A stretch of 64,000 nt of DNA from an archaeon. Its GTDB lineage: Archaea; Asgardarchaeota; Thorarchaeia; Thorarchaeales; Thorarchaeaceae. The position numbers and the translations under genes were made by a program. The notes beneath the pieces were generated by a model. It made no database searches. It was not told where the DNA came from and worked only from the letters and a program-made list of their open reading frames with translations. Where the stretch lies: assembly GCA_024276825.1 (NCBI GenBank), contig JAJRWI010000015.1, forward strand, positions 1 to 64,000, given 5' to 3'. Shown one piece after another: positions 3,981 to 25,894 of this stretch. Each line of letters begins with the position of its first letter. The first letter of the stretch is position 1.

Positions 3981-4162
3981 CGCGTAGATGTGTAGCGCTT
4001 GGGCAAACTTGGATGCTAATTAAAAGGATATCTAAGAGATATACTAAGAAATTGTTAGGAGTCTAAATAGTATCATCAGAAATCAAAGTCCGAAATGTGC
4101 CCACTACTGTTCGTGGGCGGACGGGACTGAAATGTCCGGGATTGTCCAATTTACAATGAACG
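3981..4162 (+). mobile_element. ~182-bp dispersed element (MITE-like or recombination-site-like), copy 1
   Basis: Colinear with 12063..12243 and 25713..25894. Invariant ends CGCGTAG ... GTCCAATTTACAATGAACG. Confidence 0.75.
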
Positions 4163-5128
4163 GTTTCAAAGAAGATCAAGGGACTGCGAGAGAGATATGT
4201 GCTCCGCAAGTTTGAAACAGTAAGGTTTTCTCGAATCGACATAGGAATGTTTTTTCTATTCCTAAATATTAGAAAGAGTGTAGACATTGATCTGACCACT
4301 CTGTTTTGGAAGTGTCCGTTTACATATCATATAAGAGAGGTCTTATCGGGAAACTGGGATACTCTTGTGACATTAGCAATCCCCGAGAATGTAAATAGCC
4401 TTGAATCCGTAAGGGGCGTTCTCAAGAAGTTAAACAAGGCAGGTATCAATTCGCGACTCGTAGAAGTCACCTCATCTGGTGTGTCCAATAGTTTTGACTA
4501 TTATTCTAGTTGCAGTGGCTGTTGGGAGATCCCATGGGACCTAGAGCGATTGTTGCTGTCAAAGATATATTGTGAACGATTGGCGGAGGTCTTCCCAAGA
4601 GTGGATCATGGGAGAGTCTATACGGACATTGACATTGATGAGATTGATATCAGAATACTTGACATGTTCTGGAGAGGGTGCAACACGGTTTCAGAGATTC
4701 GCAGTAGACTGGGGATAGGCCGCCAAAAAGTCGTCAATCGCATCAAGCGGCTTCGTGAGTCCGAGATGATATCAACAATCTGGGAGGTTCACAACATAGG
4801 ACTGGTTGAGAATGCATATATAACAACCAAGGACAATGATGCAGGAATGGCCATTGCTGCATGGATACAGAGACTGCCACGCGCCATTGTGTCATTTGAT
4901 GAGAGAGTGTGTCTATCGCTCGTGGTCAGTCTTCCCACTGGAGGAATTCATGGGGTCGCCAATGCTCTGAGAGTCATCCCACGGGAGGTCAGTATTAACC
5001 AGTTGGGAATGATTACCAAAGGCAGGTGGGGATTTCCTAGTTATGAATGGGACACGGAAACCCTGAGTTGGTCATTCCCAAGAGATCGTGTCAATCGATG
5101 GCTTGAGTCGCTGGATGGAAACATTTAG
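4160..5128 (+). pseudogene. 5'-truncated tandem wHTH/Lrp-like regulator
   Basis: The frame begins mid-HTH (TVSKKIKGLRERYVLRKFETV) exactly at the right end of element copy 1, preceded by an in-frame TGA. The second HTH (IDIRILDMF...VVNRIKRL) is intact. Confidence 0.7.
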
Positions 5129-5131
5129 GAT

Positions 5132-6553
5132 TCAGACAACTGGCCACTTTGGTCTGATTTCAATGCCTGCTCGCTCCAATATCTCTTGAGCGTGTTTTGA
5201 TACTCTTTCACGTAATCGGTCCTCGTCAATTGTCAGTAGTTTCTTGTCGTGCATGAGTAATTGGCCATTGACGATAGTGGTACTCACATTATGGCCAGCA
5301 CCGGAATAGACCAGATTTGACACAGGATTCGAGGTAGGTATCATGCTGAGATCAGTCAGGTCAATGATGATGAGATCAGCAATTTTACCAAGTTCAAGAG
5401 TGCCCACCTTATTACTTATGCCCATTGCCTGTGCACCGCCGAGAGTGGCCATCTCAATCACCTGTTCAGCAGATACCACCAATGGATCGCTAGTATATGC
5501 CTTGTGAATCAGTGCGGCGAGTCTCATCTCTCGAACCATGTCGTAAGTGTTATTGCTTGGACCGCCATCGCAACCAAGTGAAACCGGTACTCCAATCTTG
5601 ATCATTTCGGGAACCCGTGCAAATCCCGAAGCCAGTTTCATGTTGCTTGAAGGGCAGTGCGAAACATTGGTCTGGGTATTTGCAAGCCGCTGTAAGTCAT
5701 CGGAGTCAAAATGAACACCATGTGCAAAGACCATATCGGGTCCCAACAATGAGTGTTCTTGTGCGAACTCAGTGAGGGACATGCCATAGTTCTTTCTAAC
5801 AAAGCGGACATCATCCACCACTTCTCCCAAGTGCATGGTCATCCCAGTATTTCGTTCACGTGCGTTTCGAGCGACCTCCTTGAATAGTTCAGAGGTGACC
5901 GCTCCAAGAGACCGTAGGCCGTACCAGATCTGGATTCTGCCTTCTGCCTTTCCATGCCATTTGTCGTACATTGATGAGGTCTCTCTCATGCATTCATCTG
6001 CATCCTCGACCATTCCGGGATACATGATGTCAGGGCTGTCCGCATATCCCGTGGAGTCCATTATTATCTTGGACAGAGCAGCCCGCATTCCAATCTTCTC
6101 AACGGATTTGGCAATGCCATCAAACCCATACCGCGAATGGATCATACAGTCAAGGAATGAGGTTGTGCCCGTACGGATCATCTCAGCCATGCACAACTCA
6201 GCAGAGATCTTCCCATCTTCCTTGGTGTAGTTGCCCTGTAGCACCCAGACATAGTTCTTCAGCCAGTCGACAAGTGAAACATCATCGGCGCATCCACGAA
6301 TCAGTGCCTGAGAGAGATGCACATGAGTGTCAATCAGACCGGGCATAACTATCTTGTTGGAAGCATCAATCTCAATTTCAGCCGATTCCTTAATCCTGTC
6401 TGTCTTTCCCACCCTAGTGATTCTTCCGTCCTCAATGAGTAGGGCACCATCTCTGATTATCTCACGTTTCTGATTCATCGTCAGGACATATCCATGCTTA
6501 ATCAGTATAGACTTAGGTACTGTCAACGGCATCACTCCGAGAGATGAGTTCAT
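5132..6553 (-). CDS. Amidohydrolase, MTA/SAH or purine deaminase (AtzA/SsnA-like) family
   Basis: DTHVH, HLGE, AHGVH, HCPSSN and GCDG metal-binding motifs. Confidence 0.85.
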   Translation of the reverse strand: MNSSLGVMPLTVPKSILIKHGYVLTMNQKREIIRDGALLIEDGRITRVGKTDRIKESAEIEIDASNKIVMPGLIDTHVHLSQALIRGCADDVSLVDWLKNYVWVLQGNYTKEDGKISAELCMAEMIRTGTTSFLDCMIHSRYGFDGIAKSVEKIGMRAALSKIIMDSTGYADSPDIMYPGMVEDADECMRETSSMYDKWHGKAEGRIQIWYGLRSLGAVTSELFKEVARNARERNTGMTMHLGEVVDDVRFVRKNYGMSLTEFAQEHSLLGPDMVFAHGVHFDSDDLQRLANTQTNVSHCPSSNMKLASGFARVPEMIKIGVPVSLGCDGGPSNNTYDMVREMRLAALIHKAYTSDPLVVSAEQVIEMATLGGAQAMGISNKVGTLELGKIADLIIIDLTDLSMIPTSNPVSNLVYSGAGHNVSTTIVNGQLLMHDKKLLTIDEDRLRERVSKHAQEILERAGIEIRPKWPVV

Positions 6554-6582
6554 CTTACAAGGAAGTCATAATCGTTTTGGTG

Positions 6583-8385
6583 CTACTTCGCCAATGAGAA
6601 TGCAAGGGTGACCTTAAGTCCTTGATCAGGGTGACCCTGGACTCTGTCATCCACCATGATTCGGATTCCATATTTAGTAGCAAGTGTCTTTACAATATGA
6701 AGCCCGACACCACCATAGCGGCGAGTTGAGAGGAATATTTCAGCCTTCTTGGAGTCGGAAAGGCCCGGACCATTATCAGCAAACTCGATATAGAAAGTGT
6801 CATCAGTAAGGCGTCCAGCGATCCACAGTTTTTTCTCTTCGCGCTTGTTATGCTTTATTGCATTCTCCATTATGTTCCAGAACAGGTTGCTGAGTGAGCT
6901 GTCCGCATATACAGTGATGCTCCCTGGAATTCCCTCAACAACAGGAGAAATTCCATATTGTCGGCTCATATGTTCAATCTCGCTCAGTAATATATCAACC
7001 AGTTCAATAGGCCTCACAACCTCGCCCTTGGCGGCCTCAATCTTTCTCACCTTGGATATCAGTTCAAGACAGCGTCTAGCGCCATCGAGAATGTAGCCTC
7101 TTGCGGCATCAAGGATTTCAATGGATGAGTTGGGATGGCATAGTTCAGCACCAGCTATTACAAGTTGGAGTTGATTCCCAAAATCATGAAGCAGAAGGTC
7201 CAACAGAAAATGCGCCTCTGCCTCAGCCTGTTTCAGGTTTGAAACATCCGTGATTAATCCAAAGCTTCCAATGTATTCGCCATCGGGACCAAACAGTGGT
7301 GATGCATTAACAACTACCGGGATTAGACGGCCAGACCGATGAATAAGCTGTGCTTCATAGGATTCAACACTGCCCTGCTTTCGCATCTCAATGCGCTTCT
7401 CAATTATCTCTTGAGAGAGCCCAGCCATAATATCTGACAGGGGTCTTCCAATAATCTCATCAGCATCAGCATATCCCAGCATTTTCACAAGGGCTGGATT
7501 GACATAGATAAGAAGCCCATTGACATCATCAATTCCAAGACCGGTCTGCATGGTCTCAACAAGAGTGCGGTATCGTTGCTCACTCGCTTCTAATTGAATT
7601 CGTTGCTCTTCCAATTCTGTGAAGTCATGCAGTTGTGCGACTGTCCTCATTGTCCCGTCGCTAGCAACCATGGTGCTGGTATTGATCAATACAGTCTTGA
7701 CAGCACCGCTGCTGTGAATTACTTTAAACTTGTAAATACTGGGCACCTTCTCGCCCCGCTGCCTCTTGATATATCTCTCTGTGACCAGTGCAATGCTGTC
7801 GGGGTGCAAGAATTCACGGAAATCATGTCCAAGAATCTCATTTCTCTGACGACCGAGCATGGTGCAAAGTCCGTCATTCACATAGACAAATCGGTAATTA
7901 TCATCCACGACTAGAATTCCGAGTTGTGATTGTTCGACGATTATCTTAAATGCCTCATGCTGATCCTCAAGCTTCTCCTCAATTCTGGTCTGTCGGGTCA
8001 TGTCAAAGACATATATTAGAAAACCAACTACTGCTCCAGTTGAGTTGTGAATCGTGTCAGTGAATGTCTGAACGGGAACTTGCACACCATCGACTCGTAA
8101 TGTTCTGAGTGCAAGAGGCGCTGGGGATGCACCGTTGCGCACTAACTCAAGGCCTTTTGTTACAAGGCCCAATTGTTCATGCACAACAATATCTGAGACA
8201 AAAATTCCGTTTGCAATGCTGGCATCAGAGAAACCGAGTAGGTCTTTTGCAGCTCTATTTGCATATACCATTCTATAATTGAGATCGAGCTCAACTACAG
8301 GAATAACTAATTCATCTAGGACCTTCTTAAGAATGGCCAATGTTTCTAAAGATATAGAGTTTCTAGAGAATTCAGTTGCTGTCAT
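6583..8385 (-). CDS. Three-PAS sensor histidine kinase
   Basis: Repeated PAS units, H-box HDFGNQL, N-box NIMENAIKH, DNGPG, GVGL. Confidence 0.9.
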   Translation of the reverse strand: MTATEFSRNSISLETLAILKKVLDELVIPVVELDLNYRMVYANRAAKDLLGFSDASIANGIFVSDIVVHEQLGLVTKGLELVRNGASPAPLALRTLRVDGVQVPVQTFTDTIHNSTGAVVGFLIYVFDMTRQTRIEEKLEDQHEAFKIIVEQSQLGILVVDDNYRFVYVNDGLCTMLGRQRNEILGHDFREFLHPDSIALVTERYIKRQRGEKVPSIYKFKVIHSSGAVKTVLINTSTMVASDGTMRTVAQLHDFTELEEQRIQLEASEQRYRTLVETMQTGLGIDDVNGLLIYVNPALVKMLGYADADEIIGRPLSDIMAGLSQEIIEKRIEMRKQGSVESYEAQLIHRSGRLIPVVVNASPLFGPDGEYIGSFGLITDVSNLKQAEAEAHFLLDLLLHDFGNQLQLVIAGAELCHPNSSIEILDAARGYILDGARRCLELISKVRKIEAAKGEVVRPIELVDILLSEIEHMSRQYGISPVVEGIPGSITVYADSSLSNLFWNIMENAIKHNKREEKKLWIAGRLTDDTFYIEFADNGPGLSDSKKAEIFLSTRRYGGVGLHIVKTLATKYGIRIMVDDRVQGHPDQGLKVTLAFSLAK

Positions 8386-8537
8386 TGAGATATCATCGAC
8401 CTGCCTAGTAATATGTCAATAGAACGATTAATGAAAATTGTTTGATAATAGGATATAATAAGTTTTGGATTGCGTAATTTCAGAAGTATCATTTGGAAAT
8501 AACTTAAAGGGAGAACAGGTGATTCAGGGAAGCCCAT

Positions 8538-9050
8538 ATGATTAAATGGAGAGAACATGCCTTGAAGCAATTCCTCGTGATAGATGTAGAGAGATGCACT
8601 GGTTGCAGAAACTGCGAACTCGCCTGTTCTATGAGGAACGTGAGGAGTTTCAACCCTGCAAGGTCAAGGATTCAGATATTGAAGAGAGAGACTCAGAACT
8701 TGATAATACCTGTTGTCTGTCTTCAGTGTGACACTCCATTGTGCAAGGAGGCCTGCCCTGTTGGAGCGTTGGTGATGAACTCTGTGGGTGTGTTGACCGT
8801 AGATGACAGGACATGCATTGGATGCCTTAATTGTGTGAGCGCGTGCATTTATGGAGGGATTGCTGTTGATGCCGTTACCCGAAAAACCATCAAATGTGAC
8901 CTGTGCGACGGGGCTCCCGCCTGCATAGAGGCCTGCGATTACAATGCCATATCATTGATGAGTGCTAATGAACAGGGGAAGAGTGAGCGATCAGAGAAAA
9001 TGATGCAGTTGATAATAACATTAGGAGTAGCAAGGGAGGAGGTTCAATAA
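8538..9050 (+). CDS. 4Fe-4S dicluster ferredoxin-like subunit (AOR partner)
   Basis: Four Cys clusters, e.g. CTGCRNCELAC and CIGCLNCVSAC. Stop overlaps the AOR start. Confidence 0.9.
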   Translation: MIKWREHALKQFLVIDVERCTGCRNCELACSMRNVRSFNPARSRIQILKRETQNLIIPVVCLQCDTPLCKEACPVGALVMNSVGVLTVDDRTCIGCLNCVSACIYGGIAVDAVTRKTIKCDLCDGAPACIEACDYNAISLMSANEQGKSERSEKMMQLIITLGVAREEVQ

Positions 9051-10978
9051 TGACTTTTCCATACAAGGGCTATGCTGGATACTACTTAGAGGTTGATCTA
9101 ACTAGTGGTAAGCTCCGCAAGAGAGAGATGGAGAACGAGTGGGTGCGGCTCTATCTGGGCGGCACGGGAGTGGCTGCAAGGATACTCTGGGACAGAACGA
9201 GCCCTGCGACTGACCCGCTGTCGCCAGACAACGTGCTGGTAGTAGGCACTGGGCCGCTCACGGGAGTGATGTTCTCACCATCAGGTCGTTTCATGTTTGC
9301 TTCAAAGAGCCCACTGACTGGAATATGGGGAGAGAGTCATAGCGGAGGATTCTTTGGTCCTGAGATGAAATACGCGGGCTTTGATTTTATAATCATACAC
9401 GGCAGGTCCCCGAAGCCCGTCTATCTGTTTCTCAGAGATGGGGAGGCAGAGTTGCGAGATGCATCTCACCTATGGGGTCGCGAAACCCACGAAACCACAG
9501 ACATTATCAGGGAGGAGCTTCGCGACCCGTCGATAGAAGTCTCGGCCATTGGCCCCGCGGGGGAGAACCAAGTCCTCTATGGATGCATCACGGTTGACTA
9601 TTACAGGGCGGCAGGCAGGACTGGAATGGGTGCGGTAATGGGCTCTAAGAACCTGAAGGCAATTGCCGCTAGTGGGTCTCTACCGCTCGAGGCCCACGAC
9701 ATGGATGCTTATCTTGAGGCTAATCAGAGAGAGATGGAAAGGAATCATGCTGAGATATGGAAGGACTTCCTGTTATCTTTGAAGAAGTATGGTACAACAG
9801 ACCTTGTGGCAATGATCAATGAGATTGGGCGTCTGCCAACAAAAAACCACTGGACAGGGTATTTTGAGAAGGCAGAGGATATTGGTCCAGAGGTGATAGC
9901 TGCCAAGTACAGAATAGCGCAGGAGGCATGTCATGGATGTTCCATTGGCTGCAAATATATTTACAGGGTGATGGATGGAGAGTTTGCAGGCGGTCCAGCT
10001 GGAGGCCCCGAATATGAGACACTAATGGCCTTTGGTTCCAACTGTCTGAATAACAACATCGAGTCAATATTGCATCTGGGCACAAGATGCGATCTTTTGG
10101 GTATGGACACAATATCATGCGGGAAGACAATTGGATTTGCTATGGAACTCTGGGAGAAGGGTATCCTCACCGCCAAAGACACAGGGGGCATAGATCTCAG
10201 TTGGGGCAATGTGGAATCGATGGTTCAGCTCGTTGAGATGATTGCCAAACGTGAGGGCATTGGAAACCTTCTTGCAAATGGTGTGAAGAAGGCAGCTGAA
10301 CAGCTTGGTGGAGATGCGTGGATGTACGCAGTACATTGTAAGGGGCTTGAGGCCTCTGGACAGGACCCAAGGGCACATCAGTCAGTCGGACTCACATATG
10401 CAACTAATGTCAGAGGAGCTGATCACCTCAGATGCCTCTCAAGCCTTGAAGAACTCGGGTTCCCTGAGATTGCTATCAGTCGCTCTGGTGAGGACAAGGC
10501 TGAGGCAATCATGAACATCATGTCACCACAGTATAAGGGAGAACTGATCAAGGACATTGAAGATCTGTATGCACTTGTGGACTCAGCAGTCATCTGCAAG
10601 TACGGGACAATGTGGCCACCAATTTATTACTTTGACACCTTTGAGAATGTCATAGCACCACTCACTGGCATGACAGAATGGTCAGACAAAAGGTTTGTCA
10701 GACAGGCAGCAGAGAGAATCAGCCATTTGAGAAGAGCGTATAATCACAGACTCGGTATAACGCGCAAGGATGAAACACTCCCAAGAAGGCTACTCAAGGA
10801 GCCCATGCCAACGGGGCCCTCAAAGGGAGGACTGCCAGACCTTGATGTGATGCTTGATGAGTATTATGACTATAGAGGCTGTTCTCGTGAGACCGGTCTG
10901 CCAAAGAGGGAGGTCCTAATCGAGCTCGGACTTGATTATGTTGCTGATGATCTTGGGCGCAGAAACATGCTAGCCTGA
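9050..10978 (+). CDS. Tungsten aldehyde:ferredoxin oxidoreductase family protein
   Basis: KSPLTG, GAVMGSKNLKA, CHGCSIGC, EYET, DLLGMDTIS motifs. Confidence 0.92.
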   Translation: MTFPYKGYAGYYLEVDLTSGKLRKREMENEWVRLYLGGTGVAARILWDRTSPATDPLSPDNVLVVGTGPLTGVMFSPSGRFMFASKSPLTGIWGESHSGGFFGPEMKYAGFDFIIIHGRSPKPVYLFLRDGEAELRDASHLWGRETHETTDIIREELRDPSIEVSAIGPAGENQVLYGCITVDYYRAAGRTGMGAVMGSKNLKAIAASGSLPLEAHDMDAYLEANQREMERNHAEIWKDFLLSLKKYGTTDLVAMINEIGRLPTKNHWTGYFEKAEDIGPEVIAAKYRIAQEACHGCSIGCKYIYRVMDGEFAGGPAGGPEYETLMAFGSNCLNNNIESILHLGTRCDLLGMDTISCGKTIGFAMELWEKGILTAKDTGGIDLSWGNVESMVQLVEMIAKREGIGNLLANGVKKAAEQLGGDAWMYAVHCKGLEASGQDPRAHQSVGLTYATNVRGADHLRCLSSLEELGFPEIAISRSGEDKAEAIMNIMSPQYKGELIKDIEDLYALVDSAVICKYGTMWPPIYYFDTFENVIAPLTGMTEWSDKRFVRQAAERISHLRRAYNHRLGITRKDETLPRRLLKEPMPTGPSKGGLPDLDVMLDEYYDYRGCSRETGLPKREVLIELGLDYVADDLGRRNMLA

Positions 10979-11202
10979 GTCCGACTATCAATCGAAGTGA
11001 TCATAATTATTTCAATCATCGTTCACATTAGTCTGAGTCAGTAAGAGTTTGAGACATATCAATGATCAGGTCACTGCAGTAAATGATCCTTTAACAATGA
11101 TTTCAAGATTCAATGCAAGTTAAAGAACTTGAAAAGTGAATGAAAAATCACAGATTACGGTATTTTTATACTAATTCGACTATTCAGTATTGAGGACTTG
11201 TC

Positions 11203-11874
11203 ATGAGCGATCGCATTGAGTATGATGCAAAGTGGGCATACTGGATTGATCCAAGATCGTTCAGAATGCGACGAGTAAAGGGGAGTGTGCCTATTGGTAC
11301 AATAGTACTGTTAAAGAAACAAGAATCTCTTGATGATGGCCGGCGAATCGTCACAACCACCTATTTGTTTGCCACTGAAGATGGAGTGATCCCCAGTACG
11401 AAACGAGAGGTCAGCAAGAATCTATCAAGACAGATGTTAGAGTATATGCGAAATAGGGGAGAATATCCTCCATTTACCGAGATATCAAAAGTCTTCGCGA
11501 ATGGAAATGTAGACCTGTTGTATCATCCAACTGGTTATGACAGGTTCACAGTGCGACTGACTCCTGATCTTGTCGGCGAGGATGTTGAGATGTTCCTGAG
11601 TCAGCTTACTGAACCTGAGATTGAGGAGAAGGAACCGCCATGGGTGATTGAACCCGCCAAGTCGAGTAGGGCCAGATGCAGAAGTTGTGGTGAGAAGATA
11701 GTAAAGGGCGAACTTCGACTGGGGGAACCGAGCATTTACGAGGGGCATGTGACCTACCGTTGGCATCATCTCAAGTGTGGAGTCTACAAGATCAGGGGAT
11801 CAAAGCCCACAGATCTCAAAGGATACGATAGTCTCACTGAAGAACAAAAGCATGAAACAGAACAAATTCTCTGA
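11203..11874 (+). CDS. PARP-type zinc-finger domain protein
   Basis: C-terminal EPAKSSRARCRSC...KGELRLG...WHHLKC matches the zf-PARP pattern. N-terminal domain not recognised. Confidence 0.75.
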   Translation: MSDRIEYDAKWAYWIDPRSFRMRRVKGSVPIGTIVLLKKQESLDDGRRIVTTTYLFATEDGVIPSTKREVSKNLSRQMLEYMRNRGEYPPFTEISKVFANGNVDLLYHPTGYDRFTVRLTPDLVGEDVEMFLSQLTEPEIEEKEPPWVIEPAKSSRARCRSCGEKIVKGELRLGEPSIYEGHVTYRWHHLKCGVYKIRGSKPTDLKGYDSLTEEQKHETEQIL

Positions 11875-11956
11875 CAGATGAAGTCATATTATGATTCTGT
11901 ATTTCAGTCAGTATATTAATATCTGCACCTTCTGAATAATTCAGTAAGCGAATATA

Positions 11957-12986
11957 TTGAAGCTCATAAATCGAGAGAATGAGATGAGAGAGTTAAGGAG
12001 AGTGAAGAGCCGCTCCAAGAGAAAACTGTTTGTGATTGCATTATATGGAATGAGAAGGGTTGCGCGTAGGTGCGTAGAGCTTGACAAAGTTGGACACCAA
12101 TCAAAAGAACATCTAAGAGATCCACCATGAAATTGTGAGAAGTTTAAATGGTCTCATCGAAAACAATGGTCTGAAATGTGTCCACTGCCGTTTCTAGAAG
12201 GACAGGACTATTATGTCCCAGATTGTCCAATTTACAATGAACGATAAAGGAGCGGATGAGATACTCGAGTTTCTGTTGTTCAATGTGAACGCGCCCTTGG
12301 AGGATGAGGTCAACAGCATTCTTGCACAGGAATTCGGAAATAGTAGGGGATTATATTATTCGATTCCAAAAGCAATTGCGCAGGGAAAGAACACATTATC
12401 ATCAACAGCAGGATCATTGAATATTAGTCCCACATCAATAACTCGTCAGGTCAAAGAACTGAAGGATTATTCTGAACTGATAGAGGGGGAAAGGCCATAT
12501 GAGGGAAAACGGGGAATTTATCGCATAGTTCATCCTCTAATGGAGTGCTGGTTTTCAGAAATCCATTCACACTATTCAGATTATATAGCTAGGAGACCTG
12601 ATTTCATAGACAAGTTGAGATCAAATTTGAACACATATTATGGGAGAGCATTTGAGAGGATAGCTAGGGAGTTCTTGATTGAGAAGTTGAATCTAATTGA
12701 GGCCAAAAGGCAATGGGGCAAAATCAAGGGCGCTGAGAGAGGAGAGGACACATATGAGATTGGCCTTATCGGAAAAGGCAAGAGAGAAAAAACTGTGTTT
12801 GAGTTCAAGTGGACTGGTCTGACAGCAGCCGCAACTGAGAGAATATTATACAAACTAAGGCAAGAACTGGCATATATGAGAAATCCACCAAATGATGCAA
12901 AGCTTGGAGTAGTAGCTAGGAAAATAGATGACAAAGAGTTCTTGAGAGATGCCGGGTTTGTGGTGCATGACATGGAGGACTTTTGA
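11957..12986 (+). pseudogene. Archaeal ATPase (AAA ATPase + wHTH + DUF234/PD-(D/E)xK), broken by element copy 2 with internal deletion
   Basis: 11957-12062 encodes LKLINRENE...IALYGMRRV, stopping just before the Walker A GKT. After the element only the C-terminal half remains (GRAFERIARE, EIGLIG...FEFKW). Confidence 0.8.
12063..12243 (+). mobile_element. ~182-bp dispersed element, copy 2
   Basis: By hand count about 84% identical to copy 3 and 77% to copy 1, with a single 1-bp gap. Interrupts the ATPase gene. Confidence 0.8.
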
Positions 12987-13030
12987 TATTATGAGTAATT
13001 CTTATGTTGGAACACCCACATTCCAAGAAC

Positions 13031-14125
13031 ATGGCAGATATTTCAGTAGAGTTTGCAGGACTCTCGTTCAGAAACCCGGTACTGACAGCAGCAGGGCCCA
13101 TGGCCAGAAACGGTGCCACATTGCTTGAGGCTGCCAAGAACGGCGTGGGGGGGTTGGTCGCTAAGACAGTGAGTGTAAGACCAGCTGAAGTACCTAAACC
13201 AAACATGGCGGCCATTCAGAAAGGACGAGTAGGATCCCGGAGAGGAATTCTGAATGCTGAACTATGGAGCGAGTTACCTATAGAGAGATGGTTGGACAGA
13301 GAATATTCAATTGCTCTTGAGTCCGGGCTCACACTCATTGCGAGTCTGGGATACAAACCTGAAGAAGTGGCTGAGATAGCACCCAAAATTGAGAGAGCAG
13401 GCGTTCATGCATTGGAGTTCAGCACCCATTATGTTGGGGGACATGTGGAGATTGCAAAGGTATTGAGAGAGTCAGTGGACATTCCCATATTCGCGAAACT
13501 CAGTCCAAAGATAGATGTGGCAGAGGTTGCCAAGTCTCTTGAGCCTTATGTGGATGGAATTGTGGGAATCAATACTTACGGACCTTGTCTGAGGATTGAT
13601 ATTGAAACCGGAAAGCCAATGTTGGGTAGTGAGTTCGGGCAGGGGTGGATGAGCGGCGCCGCCCTCAAACCAATAGCACTCAGGTGCATTGCAGACATTG
13701 CAATGGCTATTAGGAAGCCAGTCATAGCAGTAGGGGGTGTCACAGAGGGGGCTGATGCCATTGAGTTCATCATGGCTGGGGCCTTTGCTGTTGAAGTATG
13801 TACAGCTGCAATTCTAGAGGGACCATCGGTCTACGGCAAAATAGCTGGTGAGATTGAAGACTGGCTTGATGAACATGGTTATGATTCTGTTGAAGACATT
13901 CAGGGGATTGCCCTCAGGCACTTGCCAAAGCGAGTGGAGTTGAAGCAACCGCCAAGAGTTGATGATGATCTCTGCACATTATGTGGACTCTGTCCAAAAT
14001 CATGCGTCTATGAAGCAATCGAACTGAACAGAGAGAAAAAGCAATTAATCATTCATGGGGACAAATGCGAACGGTGTGGGCTCTGCATATCGGTTTGCCC
14101 ATATCATGCATTGAGTTCAGATTAA
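13031..14125 (+). CDS. Dihydroorotate/dihydropyrimidine dehydrogenase (PreA-like) FMN protein with C-terminal 2x[4Fe-4S]
   Basis: FRNPVLTAAGP, AKT, KLSP, INT, SGAALKP, GGV motifs and two CxxCxxCxxxC motifs. Probable start is ATG 13031. Confidence 0.8.
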   Translation: MADISVEFAGLSFRNPVLTAAGPMARNGATLLEAAKNGVGGLVAKTVSVRPAEVPKPNMAAIQKGRVGSRRGILNAELWSELPIERWLDREYSIALESGLTLIASLGYKPEEVAEIAPKIERAGVHALEFSTHYVGGHVEIAKVLRESVDIPIFAKLSPKIDVAEVAKSLEPYVDGIVGINTYGPCLRIDIETGKPMLGSEFGQGWMSGAALKPIALRCIADIAMAIRKPVIAVGGVTEGADAIEFIMAGAFAVEVCTAAILEGPSVYGKIAGEIEDWLDEHGYDSVEDIQGIALRHLPKRVELKQPPRVDDDLCTLCGLCPKSCVYEAIELNREKKQLIIHGDKCERCGLCISVCPYHALSSD

Positions 14126-16655: not shown

Positions 16656-18026
16656 ATGAGCCGACAGGTTGATCTAGTAATAATGAATGCAAGACTGCTT
16701 CTTGAGTCTGGTATTGTTCATGGAGGCCTAGGAGTCACTGATGGTAAGATTGTCTTGATAGCGACCGATGAACACCTTCCCCGAGCTGATAAGACCATTG
16801 ACGCTGGAGGAAAGATTGTAATGCCGGGCCTGATTGATGCCCATGCACACATCTATGACCCGGAGATGCCACAGCATGAGGACTTTGTTAGTGGGTCAAG
16901 AGCCGCTGCAGCAGGGGGAGTGACAACATTTGCAGACATGCCTCTTGTGAGCCATGTGATGTCTACTCAAAGTGTGAATGAGAAGCGAACCCGTGGTGAA
17001 AAGGACTCGGTGGTCGATTTTACTATCAACGCAGGAATGATTGATCCCAGCAACATCCATGTGATACCGCTGTTAATTCAAGAGGGCGTTGCTGCTATTA
17101 AGGCATTCACCTGCAGGCCCTTTGAAGCAAATAATGGCGTGCTTGTTCTTGCCTTGAGTGAGGTCTCAGAGCACGGGGGGCACGTGATTGTTCACTCTGA
17201 AGACCAGGGGGTCTTGGACGAGTTCGCAAAGGACTTTGAGGGGGAGTGGGATGCACCAGTAAGTCATGCACTATCAAGACCAGAGCTTGCAGAATATCTG
17301 GCAGTGAGTCAGATGATCCGAATAGCAGACCAGACTAAGGGCCATCTTCATATCGCGCATATCACCACCAAAAAGGCAGTTTCAGAGGTTGAGAAGGCCA
17401 AGTTGAGTGGCATTCTCGTGACCACAGAAGTCTGTCCACATCACCTGATGTTTCACAGGGATGAGATGAACAGGCTTGGCCCGAAGAGCAAGATGAATCC
17501 GCCCCTAAGATCAAAGCATGACAGGGCTGCTCTGTGGTCTGCCCTCTTGAGAGGATACATCGATATCACTGTGAGCGACCACGCCCCATGTCCAATAGAG
17601 AAGAAGACTGTGGGAGAGGGTGACATCAGGAAGGCCTGGTCAGGAGTGGATGGTATTCAGACGATTCTGCGGGTGCTTCTTTCCGAGGGGATAAACAAGG
17701 GGCGCTTAACATATCACAGGCTCCTAGAGGTGGCATCGAAGAACCCCGCTAGACTTCTTGGCCTATATCCTAAGAAGGGCTGTATAGGAATCGGTGCTGA
17801 TGCAGACCTTGTCATCATAGACCCAAAAAGGGAAGAGAAGATCACAAGTGATATGATGTTCTCGAAATGCGGGTGGACAATATATGAGGGAATGAGAATG
17901 AAAGGGGCCCCTGTCCAGACTCTTGTGAGAGGAGTATCTGTATTTGAGGCTGGAGAAATACAGATCAATCCGCCCCTTGGCAAGTTTCAGAAGATGGGAG
18001 GCGGGTTCTTACTTGGAGAGAATTAG
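16656..18026 (+). CDS. Cyclic amidohydrolase (allantoinase/dihydropyrimidinase/dihydroorotase family)
   Basis: DAHAH, AAAGGVTT, EVCPHHL, KMNPPLR, SDHAP. Confidence 0.88.
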   Translation: MSRQVDLVIMNARLLLESGIVHGGLGVTDGKIVLIATDEHLPRADKTIDAGGKIVMPGLIDAHAHIYDPEMPQHEDFVSGSRAAAAGGVTTFADMPLVSHVMSTQSVNEKRTRGEKDSVVDFTINAGMIDPSNIHVIPLLIQEGVAAIKAFTCRPFEANNGVLVLALSEVSEHGGHVIVHSEDQGVLDEFAKDFEGEWDAPVSHALSRPELAEYLAVSQMIRIADQTKGHLHIAHITTKKAVSEVEKAKLSGILVTTEVCPHHLMFHRDEMNRLGPKSKMNPPLRSKHDRAALWSALLRGYIDITVSDHAPCPIEKKTVGEGDIRKAWSGVDGIQTILRVLLSEGINKGRLTYHRLLEVASKNPARLLGLYPKKGCIGIGADADLVIIDPKREEKITSDMMFSKCGWTIYEGMRMKGAPVQTLVRGVSVFEAGEIQINPPLGKFQKMGGGFLLGEN

Positions 18027-18028
18027 CC

Positions 18029-18520
18029 ATGAGTCAGCTACATTTCGTAATTGGTGACCCTGAGGTGTGTACAGGATGCATGATTTGTGTTACTGTCTGC
18101 AGTATGCATTTCTACAAAGTGATAAGTCCGGAGCGGTCTCGAACCCGCGTAGTGCGACTTGATAACGGGCTGGATTTTCCGCTGTTCTGTAGAAACTGTG
18201 AGGATGCACAGTGTATTCCCGCGTGTCCAAACGGTGCGATATCAAGGACATCGAAGGGGACTGTTATTGTCAACAATGCAAAGTGCAATGGTACAGGAGC
18301 TTGTGTTGAAGCATGTCCATACTTTGCAGTTCACATCCACCCTGACACTAGAAAAGCAATCAAGTGCATTCAATGTGGCGAGTGTGTGAGACGATGTCCT
18401 GCGGATGCAATATGGATCACAACTGTTGATGAACTGACCGAACGTGACCCCAAGGGCAAGATTCTAGGACTTCATGAGGAGTATAGTGAGGAACTCTATG
18501 GAGAGGAGGCCAGAAGATGA
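18029..18520 (+). CDS. 4Fe-4S dicluster ferredoxin-like subunit (AOR partner)
   Basis: Multiple Cys clusters; overlaps the AOR start (ATGA). Confidence 0.88.
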   Translation: MSQLHFVIGDPEVCTGCMICVTVCSMHFYKVISPERSRTRVVRLDNGLDFPLFCRNCEDAQCIPACPNGAISRTSKGTVIVNNAKCNGTGACVEACPYFAVHIHPDTRKAIKCIQCGECVRRCPADAIWITTVDELTERDPKGKILGLHEEYSEELYGEEARR

Positions 18521-20409
18521 TAAAGGGCGTTGGCGGCACTATACTAAGGATTGATCTAGGCAAAGGAAAAATAGAGAAGCAACCAATTGATGAGGACCTG
18601 ATAAGGAGGTATCTACTAGGTGCGGGATACCTGTCAAAGGTCTTGTTTGATGAGATAGCGGTTGATACTGACCCATTGGGACCGGAGAATGTGCTTGGTT
18701 TTGCAACAGGTCTCCTCACAGCGTCCATGTTCCCACAGGCCTCCCGTCATGTGATAGCAGCACTATCACCTCTGACTGGAATCTGGGGAGAGAGTCATGC
18801 AGCTGGGTTCTGGGGTGCAGAGCTCAAGCTAGCAGGGTATGATGCCATAATCTTCAAGGGCAAGGCAAAGGGTCCGGTCTATCTGAATATAAAAGACAAT
18901 GAGGTGGATCTATTAGATGCATCGCCCATATGGGGCAGGGATGTCTTTGAGACTGATGATTATCTGAGAGAACATCATGGAAAGAAATGCAGAACACTCG
19001 CCATCGGGCAGGCTGGAGAGAACCTTGTGCGATTTGCAGCAATCATGAATGACAGGGACAGGGCGTCAGCAAGGTCGGGTCTTGGGGCGGTCATGGGTTC
19101 GAAGAACCTCAAGGCGATTTGTGTCAGGGGCACTGGAAAGATAGAGGTTGCAAGACCCAAGGAGTATCTTAAGCAGATGGACGAGTTCTACAAGAGAATG
19201 ATGGCGAACCCATTCACCGAGGGACGAATCAAATACGGGACGACCAGTCTTGTGGAGATGATGCAGCACATCGGCAGACTGCCATCATATAACATGAGAC
19301 AGGGAGTCTTTGAGGGATACCGTAGGATCAGTGGGGAGGTCATCACTGACAACTATCTTGTCAAGCCACGTTCGGATTGGTGTTGTCTTCAGAGATGTGG
19401 TAGGTTCACAACTGTAAGAAAGGGACCTTATGCTTACATTGGAGGGTCGCCAGAGTTTGAGAGCCAGTCCTCCTTTGGATCTCGCTGTGGTAATGATAAT
19501 GTCGAATCCGTGTTGTATGCACATCACCTATCAAATCAATATGGTATGGACACAATATCACTGGGCGCAACAATCTCATGGGCCATGGAAGCCTGGGATG
19601 AGGGGCTTCTGACTGCAGAAGACACAGGAGGACTTGACCTCTCTTGGGGCAACCATGAAGTGATTGTCAAGCTTGTCAAGATGATAGCATTTCGTGAGGG
19701 ATTTGGCGATGTCTTGGCAGAGGGTAGCAAACGCGCAGCTGAGATAATTGGAAGGGGCACTGATCGCTTTGTGATGGCGGTCAAGGGTCAGGAGATTGCG
19801 GGACAGGAACCTAGAGCCCAGAAGTCTATGGGTCTTGCAGCGGTCACTGCCGCCAGGGGAGCAGATCATCTGTATGCATTCCCAGTATTGGATGAGGTTG
19901 GGTTTGATAAGGAGATTAGAGAGAGATTTGGCGAGCAGTATTTGCCAGAGATCGCAGACAGACTGAATCCGAAGTACAAGGGCGTAATGGTGAAGGAATG
20001 CGAGGACTACATGGTCGTTGTGGAGAGTCTAGGTCTGTGCAAATATGGCACACAAATCCCTGCCGAGTTCTTCTATGATGATGTTGCACAGGCACTACTG
20101 ATTCATAATGGTCTTGAGTTCACCAGAGAGGAGTTGCAGACAATTGGAGAACGCATAGTGAATATCAATAGACTGTTCAACGTGGCACGCGGAATCACGC
20201 GCAAGGATGATCAACTCCCAGATCGACTGACCAAAGAACCCGCTCCTGTTGGACCCTCAAAAGGTCAAGTTGTTGAATTAGACCAGATGTTGAATGAATA
20301 TTATACAGAACGTGGATGGGATCTAGAAACTGGGATACCGTTGATGAAGACATTGAAACGACTTGGTCTGGAAAAAGAGGGAAAAGGTCTGGCCATTGAG
20401 AGTGAGTGA
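18517..20409 (+). CDS. Tungsten aldehyde:ferredoxin oxidoreductase family protein (second paralog)
   Basis: SPLTG, GAVMGSKNLKA, DWCCLQRC, EFES, GMDTIS. Confidence 0.92.
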   Translation: MIKGVGGTILRIDLGKGKIEKQPIDEDLIRRYLLGAGYLSKVLFDEIAVDTDPLGPENVLGFATGLLTASMFPQASRHVIAALSPLTGIWGESHAAGFWGAELKLAGYDAIIFKGKAKGPVYLNIKDNEVDLLDASPIWGRDVFETDDYLREHHGKKCRTLAIGQAGENLVRFAAIMNDRDRASARSGLGAVMGSKNLKAICVRGTGKIEVARPKEYLKQMDEFYKRMMANPFTEGRIKYGTTSLVEMMQHIGRLPSYNMRQGVFEGYRRISGEVITDNYLVKPRSDWCCLQRCGRFTTVRKGPYAYIGGSPEFESQSSFGSRCGNDNVESVLYAHHLSNQYGMDTISLGATISWAMEAWDEGLLTAEDTGGLDLSWGNHEVIVKLVKMIAFREGFGDVLAEGSKRAAEIIGRGTDRFVMAVKGQEIAGQEPRAQKSMGLAAVTAARGADHLYAFPVLDEVGFDKEIRERFGEQYLPEIADRLNPKYKGVMVKECEDYMVVVESLGLCKYGTQIPAEFFYDDVAQALLIHNGLEFTREELQTIGERIVNINRLFNVARGITRKDDQLPDRLTKEPAPVGPSKGQVVELDQMLNEYYTERGWDLETGIPLMKTLKRLGLEKEGKGLAIESE

Positions 20410-20417
20410 CCTCTACT

Positions 20418-20819
20418 CTACTCCCAATGGTCCATATCGGGTGTCTGGGCCTCCATTGGCTCAACACTAAAGTCCATGTTGTTCTTCTCACAAAAATTGA
20501 TGATACGATACATCAGCTTCGAGTCCATTTCATAGACCAATTCGCCAGTGGCTGCAGTGCAGCTCACCAGAATCACATTATCCTCTTCAGAGATGATCTC
20601 AACTGTGAACTCGCTACCAAGAACATCCTTTCCGAGGTTGAGGACTGCATTTCTGATCTCAGCTGCGCCAAGATATAATTGATGCCCAAATCTTGGTCTG
20701 AATCGGTAGATGCGTCTACTTCTTACCTCTGACATTCTCATCGCCTCAGTCACAACTGGCACAGACGTTAGTGATTGTGTCCTTAACGCCTTCCATTTTT
20801 CTGAGTTTCTCAAAGACAA
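20418..20819 (-). CDS. Hypothetical protein (true start probably near 20741)
   Basis: ORF directly downstream of the Lrp-domain gene; no motif recognised. Confidence 0.55.
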   Translation of the reverse strand: MSLRNSEKWKALRTQSLTSVPVVTEAMRMSEVRSRRIYRFRPRFGHQLYLGAAEIRNAVLNLGKDVLGSEFTVEIISEEDNVILVSCTAATGELVYEMDSKLMYRIINFCEKNNMDFSVEPMEAQTPDMDHWE

Positions 20820-20991
20820 ATGAACTCAGTGCTTCTGGAGTCTTAAACACACCCTTAATCAGAATGTCATATGCCCCGTAGATGAGAAAGGCCTCTTCAA
20901 CTTCATCCATCTCAAGGACACTGTCCAGGACTTGTCGGGCCTTTGCAGAGTCCACCTTTCCAATAATGAATGCCATTATCATGTCAGTCAT
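20746..20991 (-). CDS. Stand-alone Lrp/AsnC ligand-binding domain protein
   Basis: YGAYDILIK and EGVKDTIT motifs, about 80 aa. Confidence 0.88.
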   Translation of the reverse strand: MTDMIMAFIIGKVDSAKARQVLDSVLEMDEVEEAFLIYGAYDILIKGVFKTPEALSSFVFEKLRKMEGVKDTITNVCASCD

Positions 20992-21139
20992 ATCAAGTTG
21001 TCTCCAGCGCTGTAAATAGTAATGTTCAGATAACTGCCTATGAGTGTGGAGTAATAAACATGACGACTTTTAATGCAACGGTTCATGTTGATGACCCTAT
21101 TATTATCAGTCAAAAACGACGGTATGCATGCATAATGGG

Positions 21140-22450
21140 TCATTCGCTGCTCTCACACTTGAACTTGAGTATGAACACTGTTCCAGGCTTGGACTGTGAG
21201 TTGTTCCTGTTTCGAACGCTCAGTTGGATACCACACAGTGGTGCAAGTCCTTTGATAAGACCCAGTCCCAATCCCGAATTAGGTGGACCTATGTTTCCCT
21301 ACTCGCTGGAGTTTATGTATTGCAACTGTTGTTCATTCATACCGCCTGCACTGTCTTGAATTTGAAGAATACAAATGGAGGAGTCTACCGTCCTTGCAGT
21401 GATTTCTATATCTTGACTGCCATGCTTGAATGCATTGTCTATGATATTCCAGACTATCTCTTGAGCCAGTTGATTTGTCAATATTTGAATGTGTTCGATT
21501 CCCTCAACTCGAATCGCATCCTGACTAAGGACATACTCTTGCATGACACGATTCAGGACGCCTTTAATCAGATCTTCTAGGTCTATCCTGACCATTGGTA
21601 GTTTGAGAGAGGACAGTATTTGTTCAATCTCTCGCATGTCATCGATGAACTTACTAGACTGGTTGACTGCATCATTCGCTATTTGCAGCCAGTATTCATT
21701 ATCCTGAGGGTTATCACGTGCCAGCTGAATAGCATTACTAATTATCTGAATATAGTTGCGAATATCGTGTTGCACAACGCGAGTCATCAGTCGCGATATA
21801 TTATACTGTGATTGTATCTTCAAACCCATGTATCTAAACAAAAGGGCATATATCGATATACCAATTATCAGAATTCCTGTTGCGTGAAATACTATGAGGA
21901 TCAATATAATGTCGAAAAAGTGAACGAAGGGAGGGATAATGGAAGTGACCGCAACCAATAGCAGTCCAACGGTTAGTGTATATATGGAGGTTCTTTGCTT
22001 AATGGGTATTTTGGACAATTCATTGGCAGAAAGGTAGCAAGCAATAGGCATTTCAAAAGACAGGGGGATATACATGGAAAGAAGAGGAAGTTGGAAAACC
22101 AGACAAAACAATACCCAGGCAGACATGAGCACAAATGAGAGTATATAGTAATGATGCTTCAAGTTCTTGTTAACACTCTCATCGAGCTCAAAGGCCACCA
22201 TTGCAACTCCCAGTGCGGCCAATGGCATCAAAACAAGATCAATAGGAAGACCACCCTCCGCAGAATGTAGTGCAAATAGTGATGCATTTGCAATGTACAG
22301 GTTCCATCCGATTGACCATCGTCTGAATTTTGTGTCCACAGATAGGCGATAGAATGCAAGGCTGACCATTATCACGGTTGCTATTGCTGCCTCCATTATT
22401 ATGATGTTAATTACTTCCAATAATAGACTTTGCAGCAATAGTATCACCAA
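21140..22450 (-). pseudogene. Membrane sensor histidine kinase with an in-frame TAG inside the HATPase domain
   Basis: H-box HDIRN, N-box DNAFKH and DSAGG precede TAG at 21299-21301. The frame continues GNIGPPNSGLGLGLIK...GTVFILKF to TGA at 21140. Confidence 0.8.
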
Positions 22451-22646
22451 TGCCTTTCATTCTGGCTAAAGAAAGCCCTCATTCGAACTAAATATCGTAT
22501 TACAGACCATAGCAGATGCACTTATTGAGTGCTTCAGGTTGATTATATTTACTTTTCCATATTTTCTGAATTAGTCTGACAGGGGATATAATAACGGTAG
22601 TCTTCTCCACTGCTGATGGTTTCACCTCATCTATAATACTCAGGGT

Positions 22647-25550
22647 TCATTCAAGATATAGAGACACTCTACCAGGCAATGCGAACCTTGCCTTGTTCTG
22701 CGGGTCGTATTCAGGTCTAACAGCCTTGTGAATGATTGTTTTGGCACCAATCTCGGACTCTATGAAGGCTGATGAGTCCCTGAGAGTAGTGTATTCATCC
22801 TTTGCAGAGTATGAGTGATCCCAGAGCCCGTTTTCTTTTGCAATGCGATCAACAATCGACTTGACCTGCTTTCCATAGGCTCTGAATTTTGGGTCAGACA
22901 TCAAGTGTTTCATTATATTTCCAACAACCATCGGCATATTGGCCTCTCGGATGCTATTCATCGCATCGAACATCCATTGGGGGGCAACATAGACATGAAC
23001 CGTTGAAACCTGTTTGCCCTTCAAGAGTTTCATTATTTCTCTGATGTCGCTGATAGTTGAACTGACGACGGCAAAGGCATTCTCGATCTTTGGGTCAATC
23101 AACCTCTTGTCTGGTTTAGGCCAATGTGCAAGGGACACATAGCCCTCGCGTCGCATCTTTGACCACATCTCCTCGCAGGTGTGTGGTGCCATTGGTGCCA
23201 TCAGCCTGACCCAAATGTCGGACACATAGGCCATTGTGCCCTCGCGTTCTGCCTTGGGCACTTCAGGGTGCTTCAGATAGTGGTTGATTGCGCGGATCAT
23301 CTCGGATGTAGTATAGATTGCATAGTCCCTAATCTTGAATGACTCCATGAATTCGGTGCACAACTTCACAATAGAGTTCACCTTTGAGAGTATCCAGCGG
23401 GTGGCCAGTGTTGGTCCGTCCTTCTTCAGAAAAACACGAGGTTCCTTCCTTGCATATTTGGAAACAATATCCGTGAACTGACGTAGACGGGTTCTCACAG
23501 CTGGCACATCACGTTCGCGCCAGTCCATAATCGAGCCGGGTTCTGCTGCAGATATTGCGTAGATGCGATACACATCAGCACCGTATTTCTTTGGGATCTC
23601 CACAAGTGGAATGACATTACCCTTACTCTTGGACATCTTTGTGCCTTCAAGAATGAGATGTTCATTCAGACTAATGCACTTCAACCAGTGCTTCTCGGGG
23701 AATATCGCTACATGGTGAAAGATGGCAAAGCTGAGATGGTTTGATATATGAGATGGCGCAGTGTGTCTTTGATCATTGGGGTACCAGTATAGGAACTCTG
23801 CTCGCATCTTCTTCAGTAGTTCTGCATCAATGCCAGTCTTTTCAGAAACCTTCTTGGGAGTTCCCTTGCCCAGAAACACATGATCAAAGAACTCGAGGGT
23901 CAGCTGCTCGGGCTTTAGCTTGTTCCCATAGATAAAGTGTGCTATTGTATAATATGCCATATAGATTGTCGAGTCAGACAACGACTCGATAATCCACTCG
24001 GGGTCGAATGGCAGTCGAGTCCCGATGCCTCGCTTTCTTGCACAGGGGCGCTGAGTTAACCAGTCGAAGGTGGCCTCGAACAGGTTCCTGAAGGTCTCAG
24101 GTAGAATCTTCATCGAGTTCAATGCCTTCCAAGCGGTCTCTTTCCAGCCGGGGCTCAGATAGTCAAGGAACCATTGTCCTGCAAAGACGCCCACCTCAAC
24201 TTCAGTGCCACATTTACAGATAACAGGGCGGATGTCGGGTTCGTAGAACACATCACACTTGTTATTCTCTTTCATCCATGCAATCACATCATCCTTGACG
24301 TCTTTTATTGCACGACCAGAGAACTGCATACAATTGTCCTTCATGATTCCTGAATAGAACTCTGCCTTGTAGATCTCCTGCGTGGCGTCCTCCAGCTTTT
24401 CATCCTCGTTCTGCGATTTTATATCCCTACTCTCAACAGCGTCTTTGGCAGGAAACTCGCTGTATCCATCAATGTCAATCATGCTGATTATCTCGATGGA
24501 CCTCACTTCCTCAGGTGAGATGCCATATTGTTCAAGTCCAGAGGGGTCATCCCAAAGGTCTCTTAGGGCAATATAGTCGAAGGGGGCATGTCCCGGTACT
24601 GAGTACACAACACCCGTGGCATTGTCGGGGTCAACAAAGTCTGCAGGCAATATTAGAATCTCGTGGTCGTCATGAATTGCTCTGAATTTCTTGCCGATGA
24701 TCTTTGAGCCCGGAAACTTTTCAATTATCTCGACCTCTTTAGCCTGCAACTTCAATTTCTCAGCGGCCGACTTAGAGATCAACCACTTCTCACTGTTGAC
24801 TCGTGCCCAAACATAGATTGCTTTTGGGTCGATCCACATGTTGGTGACTCCAAAGATTGTTTCGGGTCTTAGAGTAGCAGCAACAAGATAGCCATCCTCA
24901 AAGCCCCACTTAATCGCAGTGAATTCCTTGATCTTGGCAGTCTCGCCGGCTAGGAGGTCATCCTCACCAACAGGGTTCTCGCACTTCGGGCAGTAAAGTA
25001 AGGGGTAATCGCCCTGTTTGATGTATCCCTTCTCCTTGAATTTTGAGTACTGCCACTCGATAAATTTTGAATACTCCTTGTCGCCAGTTGTGAACTTTCT
25101 CCGCCAATCAATACTGTATCCAAGGGCATCAAAGTCCTGTGAGATTACCTTTGCAAAGAAAGACGCTGTGACCCAAGGGTCTGTAAACTTGGCGAGCTGC
25201 GTGTTAACTTCTTCTTCGGTCTCAAAGTACAGACGGAGGTCTCTCTTATACTGTTCAATGGCAGTCTTGTCACCGGCCTTGATCCGCTCGACTATCCCTA
25301 GAATGGGCGTGCCGGTCATGTGTGAGGCCATGGGAAACAGGACATTATACCCCTGCATCCTCTTGTATCGTGCAATCAGGTCACCCATGGTATAAGTACG
25401 CCCATGTCCAATATGCAGGGCGCCATTGGTATATGGATAGGGGACTGTGAGAAAGAATTTCTTCTTCTTTGGTATTGGGTCTGCTTCAAAGACCTTATCG
25501 CGTTTCCAGCGTTTCTGCCATTTCTTCTCGATCTTTGCAAATTCGCTCAA
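22647..25550 (-). CDS. leuS: Leucine--tRNA ligase (archaeal/eukaryotic type)
   Basis: PYPYTNGALHIGH, ATLRPET, KMSKSKGN; TTG start with GAGG Shine-Dalgarno (SD). Confidence 0.96.
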   Translation of the reverse strand: MSEFAKIEKKWQKRWKRDKVFEADPIPKKKKFFLTVPYPYTNGALHIGHGRTYTMGDLIARYKRMQGYNVLFPMASHMTGTPILGIVERIKAGDKTAIEQYKRDLRLYFETEEEVNTQLAKFTDPWVTASFFAKVISQDFDALGYSIDWRRKFTTGDKEYSKFIEWQYSKFKEKGYIKQGDYPLLYCPKCENPVGEDDLLAGETAKIKEFTAIKWGFEDGYLVAATLRPETIFGVTNMWIDPKAIYVWARVNSEKWLISKSAAEKLKLQAKEVEIIEKFPGSKIIGKKFRAIHDDHEILILPADFVDPDNATGVVYSVPGHAPFDYIALRDLWDDPSGLEQYGISPEEVRSIEIISMIDIDGYSEFPAKDAVESRDIKSQNEDEKLEDATQEIYKAEFYSGIMKDNCMQFSGRAIKDVKDDVIAWMKENNKCDVFYEPDIRPVICKCGTEVEVGVFAGQWFLDYLSPGWKETAWKALNSMKILPETFRNLFEATFDWLTQRPCARKRGIGTRLPFDPEWIIESLSDSTIYMAYYTIAHFIYGNKLKPEQLTLEFFDHVFLGKGTPKKVSEKTGIDAELLKKMRAEFLYWYPNDQRHTAPSHISNHLSFAIFHHVAIFPEKHWLKCISLNEHLILEGTKMSKSKGNVIPLVEIPKKYGADVYRIYAISAAEPGSIMDWRERDVPAVRTRLRQFTDIVSKYARKEPRVFLKKDGPTLATRWILSKVNSIVKLCTEFMESFKIRDYAIYTTSEMIRAINHYLKHPEVPKAEREGTMAYVSDIWVRLMAPMAPHTCEEMWSKMRREGYVSLAHWPKPDKRLIDPKIENAFAVVSSTISDIREIMKLLKGKQVSTVHVYVAPQWMFDAMNSIREANMPMVVGNIMKHLMSDPKFRAYGKQVKSIVDRIAKENGLWDHSYSAKDEYTTLRDSSAFIESEIGAKTIIHKAVRPEYDPQNKARFALPGRVSLYLE

Positions 25551-25712
25551 TGACTAGGACCTCCTCTGTTGGTGTGTTGATGATATGCGAGCCAAAAAAC
25601 ATACTGTGTAATAGGATTCAAAGGTTGTGACTCTCTTAATGATTGAGAACGCAATCCATCCTGGCTCACTTGATTATTGACATTTACAAGGTATTCTTAT
25701 AGCTTTGGATTT

Positions 25713-25894
25713 CGCGTAGATGCGTAGAGCTTGGACAGAGTTGGACACCAATCAAAAGAACGTCTAAGTGATATGCTATAAAATTGTGAGGGGCTTAAGC
25801 AGTATCATGGTAAACAATGGTCTGAAATTTGTCCAGTGCTGTTCCTGGAAGGACAGGACTTTAATGTCCAACTTAGTCCAATTTACAATGAACG
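25713..25894 (+). mobile_element. ~182-bp dispersed element, copy 3 (best-preserved motifs)
   Basis: Left TTGGACagagTTGGAC and right GTCCAActtaGTCCAA; same invariant termini as the other copies. Intergenic. Confidence 0.8.

Follow-up and report, generated by a model that had tools for sequence, protein, structure and literature searches.

Three short repeats in the genome of a Thorarchaeaceae archaeon (assembly GCA_024276825.1, contig JAJRWI010000015.1, positions 1-64,000; this stretch of 64,000 nucleotides is called the window and the genome G000) raise the question of which mobile system placed them there. A preliminary description of the window had located three copies on one strand and interpreted them as a non-autonomous element or recombination site of an uncharacterised Asgard mobile system, with IS607 among the options listed. 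The copies are present on the same strand at these positions and the interpretation as a non-autonomous mobile element was upheld; the system itself is not uncharacterised, since ends, core, absence of a target duplication and the transposase of the parent are those of the known IS607. With a probability of about 0.93, the repeats are non-autonomous, gene-less derivatives of a Thorarchaeota IS607-family transposon, here called mini-elements. They hold the left (~45 bp) and right (~65 bp) ends of an element encoding a serine transposase and TnpB. A pseudoknot in the right end and a large, cargo-carrying parent had escaped the preliminary description.

The origin from an IS607-type element was fixed by a 570-bp copy in the same genome (C81), because its ends, the same as in the other copies, enclose part of an IS607 serine transposase. 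It comprises TnpA residues 1-107 (NF033518, E 7e-22; truncated, with a score below the curated cut-off) fused to the zinc-finger tail of TnpB, and its ends agreed with those of the window copies in 35-38 of 46 bases on the left and 52-60 of 66 bases on the right. A long copy with the same ends around a recombinase had been named in the preliminary description as the object to look for. In the window itself no transposase had been recognised, and a Pfam scan of 20 nearby open reading frames (ORFs) of the window detected none. TnpA relatives were present in 26 of 85 family genomes; where the 5' region of the related tnpA genes was undisturbed, the genes lay ~70-90 bp behind the same left-end motifs. 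The full-length TnpA of locus L057 reached 176 bits, compared to the IS607 cut-off of 110. A derivation from an IS110/IS1111, IS200/IS605 or tyrosine-recombinase element has practically no chance and was already largely refuted by the serine recombinase directly inside matching ends. The absence of terminal repeats and of a duplication fits these families as well, and an IS110 is present within two copies; however, this IS110 has its own boundaries inside the left-end motif and splits the element as a secondary insertion, and no DEDD recombinase, as expected for IS110/IS1111, was found between the element's own ends.

The IS110 insertions were recorded in their own right. At G000:C81:172958-174478 (minus strand) a 1,521-bp IS110 is located between two left-end motifs of a copy, and a 324-bp remnant, 94 % identical, occupies the same site of another copy (G000:C36:16104-16427). 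The 5' non-coding region of this IS110 has an internal loop with CCAAC and TGGACAA, matching the left-end motif, in the manner of bridge-RNA targeting.

The three window copies shared pairwise identities of 77.3 %, 75.3 % and 84.0 % with a single 1-bp indel, in agreement with the hand-counted ~77 % and ~84 %. A profile built from them matched further genomic copies with E values down to 1e-50, far beyond chance. Iterated over the 2.94-Mb assembly with a threshold of E 1e-5 or better, the profile yielded 58 matches on both strands (34 near full length, 43 left ends, 52 right ends), corresponding to ~50 copies; many genome-wide copies had been anticipated. Identity between copies ranged from 44 % to 99 %, and the middles formed three subfamilies. 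The high upper value of 99 % indicates a fairly recent movement of the family. A fixed length of ~182 bp did not hold on this scale: internally deleted copies measured ~120-175 bp, next to the one of 570 bp. Likewise, the supposedly invariant 19-bp terminus occurred exactly in only 19 of 52 right ends. Across all copies conservation extended as far as G-GG-TTG at the left end and AAC-GG-T at the right end; G-G-G preceded TTG in 37, 41 and 38 of 43 left ends, and G-G-T followed AAC in 45, 43 and 41 of 52 right ends. The copies are real, with true ends a few bases further out than first drawn. The shared dinucleotide at the junction, initially taken as CG, is GG, sometimes GA or AG. The resemblance of the left flanks belongs partly to the element (TTG) and partly to core and target (G-GG). 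The copies and their left-end motifs in the window are:

3976-4163, plus strand: copy 1, including the left core AG (3976-3977) and the right core GG (4162-4163); intergenic
3999-4014, plus strand: left-end motifs of copy 1, two degenerate TTGGAC at 10-bp spacing, putative TnpA sites; the same motifs precede every related tnpA
12058-12244, plus strand: copy 2, with GG as left and GA as right core; inserted at the Walker A codons within an ATPase/DUF234 gene
25708-25895, plus strand: copy 3, with a GA core on either side; lies between leuS and ORF 26040, at a site whose orthologue is empty in three relatives
25731-25746, plus strand: left-end motifs of copy 3, TTGGAC-N4-TTGGAC

The hexamers TTGGAC and GTCCAA with their 10-bp spacing, already noticed in the preliminary description, proved real. 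Motifs of this type occurred at both ends, inverted between the ends and at differing distances to the two termini; the copies had no terminal inverted repeats. Junction cores were mostly GG/GG, in a minority GA or AG, with GA at one or both ends. Mismatched cores have been reported for a serine TnpA (bioRxiv 10.1101/2023.11.20.567912), and the GA cores are compatible with these. The comparison with empty sites, as the preliminary description had proposed, defined core and target at three sites, each with one shared 2-bp core and without target duplication. For a nested copy on C33, and for a copy on C49 compared to an uninterrupted paralogue, the target was restored once one GG was kept. At the locus of copy 3, three relatives (G001, G002 and G041) had the same gene order and lacked the element; the joined flanks of copy 3 equalled the spacing of the relatives between leuS and ORF 26040 with one shared core. 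For copy 3, presence at the orthologous position in all relatives, which would have spoken for a fixed locus, was therefore not the case. For copies 1 and 2 no orthologous sites were obtained, the related loci being insufficiently close. The insertion targets are N-G-GG-T/C and share the 2-bp core without duplication. Shared ends, core, target, the lack of a duplication and the mobility of the copies can be regarded as shown. With classical miniature inverted-repeat transposable elements they have in common that they are short, gene-less, multi-copy and dependent on a transposase in trans, but they differ by the lack of terminal inverted repeats and target duplication.

IS607 elements are characterised by the absence of terminal repeats and duplication, by GG at ends and target and by phased short motifs (PMC6188088; bioRxiv 10.1101/2023.11.20.567912). 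The family described here shares with IS607, IS1535 and ISC1926 (PMC6188088) and with the IS607-type CboIStron (bioRxiv 10.1101/2023.11.20.567912) a serine TnpA with an N-terminal DNA-binding domain of the HTH type, the GG core at ends and target with a G before the core (TGGG-like), insertion without target duplication, end motifs in helical phase that are inverted from one end to the other, and a TnpB with a pseudoknot at the right end, which ends in CGG. In analogy to IS607 biochemistry, TnpA acting in trans would bind the 10-bp-phased motifs at both ends and excise the element at the GG core as a double-stranded circle, which would integrate at new GG sites. In contrast to these elements, the window copies encode nothing, the covarying scaffold has only ~65 nt, an intron is absent, and the parent is much larger, its tnpA and tnpB being separated by a giant cargo gene. 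The two adjacent ORFs tnpA-tnpB of the compact canonical IS607 (~2 kb; a typical, not a defining layout) were not seen in the parents. Cargo has been reported in serine-TnpB branches (PMC10691335).

Parents of 8.0-9.4 kb were found in related Thorarchaeota. They consist of the left end, tnpA as first gene behind it, a giant gene that encodes 1,430-1,870 amino acids (aa) and in most cases has the opposite orientation, a gene for a TnpB of 710-770 aa that overlaps or adjoins the right end, and the right end itself. All three frames were open in five loci (L066, L067, L069, L071, L072). No published description of this layout was found in the literature searched. In TnpB the RuvC residues D531/E641/D734 and the zinc finger were invariant in 7 sequences; the protein scored above the cut-off of PF07282 and with 82 bits below the cut-off of 100 for NF040570. 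Full-length relatives of this TnpB in the genome collection came from archaea, Thorarchaeota among these. The giant, a family of 190 clusters, was identified only by folding; searches against Pfam, NCBIfam, PDB sequences and the ESM Atlas gave nothing useful. The predicted structure of its N-terminal domain (pLDDT 94.5) had Cas1 or casposase structures as its top 12 matches (Z 9.5-12.9, root-mean-square deviation 3.5-4.1, 152-191 residues aligned; next match Z 6.0), and E70, H183 and D193 form an invariant triad of acidic residues and a histidine. Foldseek also returned Cas1 matches for this domain, none at E 0.001 or better. Behind it follows a putative PD-(D/E)xK-type nuclease domain, assigned by invariant motifs and not by a fold match, and the N-terminal 925 residues include a RecA/RAD51/KaiC-like fold with a degenerate P-loop. 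Shorter derivatives (L075, L057, L051, L055, C81) make up a series of deletions that leads towards the mini-elements. The middles of the mini-elements differ among relatives, thus these probably arose more than once.

The presence of the giant in all full-length parents, with an N-terminal Cas1 catalytic fold and the invariant E70, H183 and D193, raises the alternative that this Cas1-like protein (aCas1), and not the serine recombinase, moved parents and mini-elements. The pairing of aCas1 and TnpB in Asgard archaea has been published, and aCas1 was proposed as a transposase (PMC10691335). Three loci (L079, L086, L087) carry the giant, TnpB and the family right end, with neither tnpA nor a recognisable left end beside the giant; a truncation or a different left end may account for this state. 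Cas1-type integration causes staggered target duplications. The junction repeat, however, was exactly the 2-bp core in nine long parents (GG) as well as at the three empty sites, which points to TnpA; the terminal inverted repeats of casposon-like or aCas1 transposons were missing, too. Besides, the gene next to the left end is tnpA, and in one parent (L074:1304-7324) the giant (1,432 aa) is inverted while ends, tnpA and tnpB keep the usual layout, as expected of cargo. Mobilization by aCas1 is for these reasons very unlikely. Behind the inverted giant come a RadA/Rad51-like gene (337 aa) and a 245-aa frame, and all three lie within the element ends. An assignment of L074 as a giant-less parent was rejected after the inverted giant had been located, hence L074 is no evidence for a dispensable giant. 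With the aCas1-associated TnpB loci Cas1H-Asgard-1 and -2 (PMC10691335) the parents share a Cas1-fold giant paired with TnpB in an Asgard archaeon, but here both are enclosed by IS607-type ends together with a complete IS607 tnpA. The motif GTTCACTCA, described downstream of tnpB in the Cas1H-Asgard groups, was present in 0 of 21 parent loci.

The last 65 bp of the copies derive from the final tnpB codons and the right end. In 26 parent right ends this region is predicted to form a 6-bp stem, a 6-bp pseudoknot in which the loop of this stem pairs with the terminal bases, and another stem. A covariation test, as proposed in the preliminary description, supported this pseudoknot: 92 % of the positions were paired overall, with 38 double changes compared to 12.8 after shuffling, and 0 of 500 shuffles were as good. 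Pairing amounted to 92 % in helix 1 and 95 % in the pseudoknot, one position of which had five pair types among the parent ends; slid controls reached 44 % at most. The parent right end thus folds, by the covariation of its bases, as a pseudoknot. TnpB omega-RNAs have a stem-loop whose loop pairs with the 3' end of the scaffold, beside the guide; the same arrangement is present in the 26 parent ends and decayed in the mini-elements. Of 34 copies, 18 had a TATA-like box at a distance of 24-31 nt ahead of the stem, compared to 1.7 after shuffling. In 16 of 34 copies, from two subfamilies with unlike middles, it ended exactly 30 nt before the stem; in the third subfamily two copies had a box 26-31 nt before it. 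Judged by this spacing, a transcript would start ~6 nt ahead of the stem. In the window the following features were assigned:

4062-4069, plus strand: TATA-like box of copy 1, ~30 nt ahead of the pseudoknot stem, candidate promoter
4099-4163, plus strand: right end and omega-RNA-like scaffold of copy 1, with a remnant of the last tnpB codons, stem, pseudoknot and GTCCAA motifs in inverted orientation
12143-12150, plus strand: TATA-like box of copy 2, TTTAAATG
12180-12244, plus strand: right end and omega-RNA-like scaffold of copy 2; decayed stem with 3 of 6 pairs
25794-25801, plus strand: TATA-like box of copy 3, decayed, in register with the boxes of the other copies
25831-25895, plus strand: right end and omega-RNA-like scaffold of copy 3, which agrees in 60 of 66 bases with the IS607 remnant of C81 at its right end

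The middle of a mini-element may supply an archaeal promoter from which each copy would make an omega-RNA guided by its own right flank; the TnpB of a parent, directed by this flank, would cut the empty site, so that retention of the copy would be favoured. We lean towards this joint reading of promoter, guide and retention. Gene-less derivatives of IS200/IS605, the palindrome-associated transposable elements (PATEs), often keep the omega-RNA (bioRxiv 10.1101/2023.03.14.532601). The mini-elements resemble PATEs in the lack of genes, in both ends being kept and in an omega-RNA-like right end for TnpB in trans; their ends are those of a serine recombinase with a GG core, whereas PATEs depend on a Y1 HUH enzyme acting on single-strand hairpins. 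At G000:C33:117213-117574 one copy was observed inside the pseudoknot stem of an older copy, in opposite orientation.

A promoter-like box at a fixed distance and the joint change of both stem sides within the main subfamily could also be expected of host RNA or regulatory loci, domesticated and kept for their function irrespective of their origin. Such a role is highly improbable. Copies are nested within one another, the site of copy 3 is empty in three relatives, the fold is decaying, and no Rfam match was obtained for the repeat copies. Most of the covarying stem states occur in parents as well, so inheritance or end swapping can explain them. Finally, copy 2 has destroyed a gene, of which two pieces remained:

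11954-12059, plus strand: 5' fragment of the disrupted ATPase/DUF234 gene, weakly matching (E 0.045) residues 8 to ~41 of a homologue
12245-12986, plus strand: 3' fragment of this gene, corresponding to residues 220-454 of the homologue

Compared to the 459-aa homologue, ~178 codons were lost at the right junction of copy 2, likely by an element-linked deletion.

Several observations weigh against the derivation from an IS607 transposon and the functions attributed to the ends. The Cas1-fold protein of every full-length parent could take part in mobility. The 60-bp middle of the mini-elements is without a clear homologue in the parents. Copies and parent ends are related, so the counts for the TATA-like box and for covariation overstate independence. 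In the right ends of the mini-elements the fold persists in a decayed state (stem 83 % and pseudoknot 88 % paired, compared to 92 % and 95 % in parents), and single copies folded no better than shuffled sequences in a program that ignores pseudoknots. The G000 assembly (98 % complete, 82 contigs) yielded neither an intact TnpA nor a cognate TnpB or a giant, so the family is probably orphaned in this assembly, and it looks decaying; an assembly in 82 contigs does not demonstrate absence from the genome. Apart from the C81 remnant, the same searches detected only one TnpB, on C24, which is unrelated. This TnpB (G000:C24:44990-46700) appears intact with a ~540-aa frame, lies just downstream of a tRNA-like sequence and lacks the ends of the family.

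The family represents a variant of known selfish DNA and not a new mobile system; beyond the textbook are the layout of the parent and the probable design of promoter plus scaffold. The element is ordinary selfish DNA, to which ~50 repeats and the loss of one gene in this genome can be attributed. From the copies, ends, core and target (N-G-GG-T) are known exactly, and a target motif and a compact scaffold for TnpB can be predicted, which makes the Asgard TnpB of 710-770 aa directly testable. The copies also argue that the serine recombinase, and not the Cas1-like giant, moves DNA in this group. In a more speculative and rather doubtful extension, the mini-elements would be promoter-bearing, guide-RNA-only parasites of IS607 that borrow TnpA and the oversized TnpB via a ~70-nt scaffold, and the parent would combine three enzymes, with TnpA moving the DNA and an active Cas1-like giant in a separate role, e.g., in capturing or inserting DNA for the element. 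If so, aCas1 would lose its proposed transposase role in this group, and a TnpB-Cas12 intermediate would exist in Asgard archaea.

Further observations concern the surroundings of the copies. Rfam and ARAGORN matched only a selenocysteine tRNA in the window, with its gene at 31213-31303 on the minus strand. A 27-nt non-coding motif at 25644-25670, ~95 bp upstream of leuS, recurred at 96-100 % identity in four relatives, while a fifth retained part of it; the motif had a weak fold on the leuS strand (z -1.7) and is possibly a leader or a small RNA. An inverted match of 110 nt with 71 % identity was observed between positions 29923-30032 and 45168-45277; its first arm lies inside a TFIIB gene, thus it is probably due to a paralogue.

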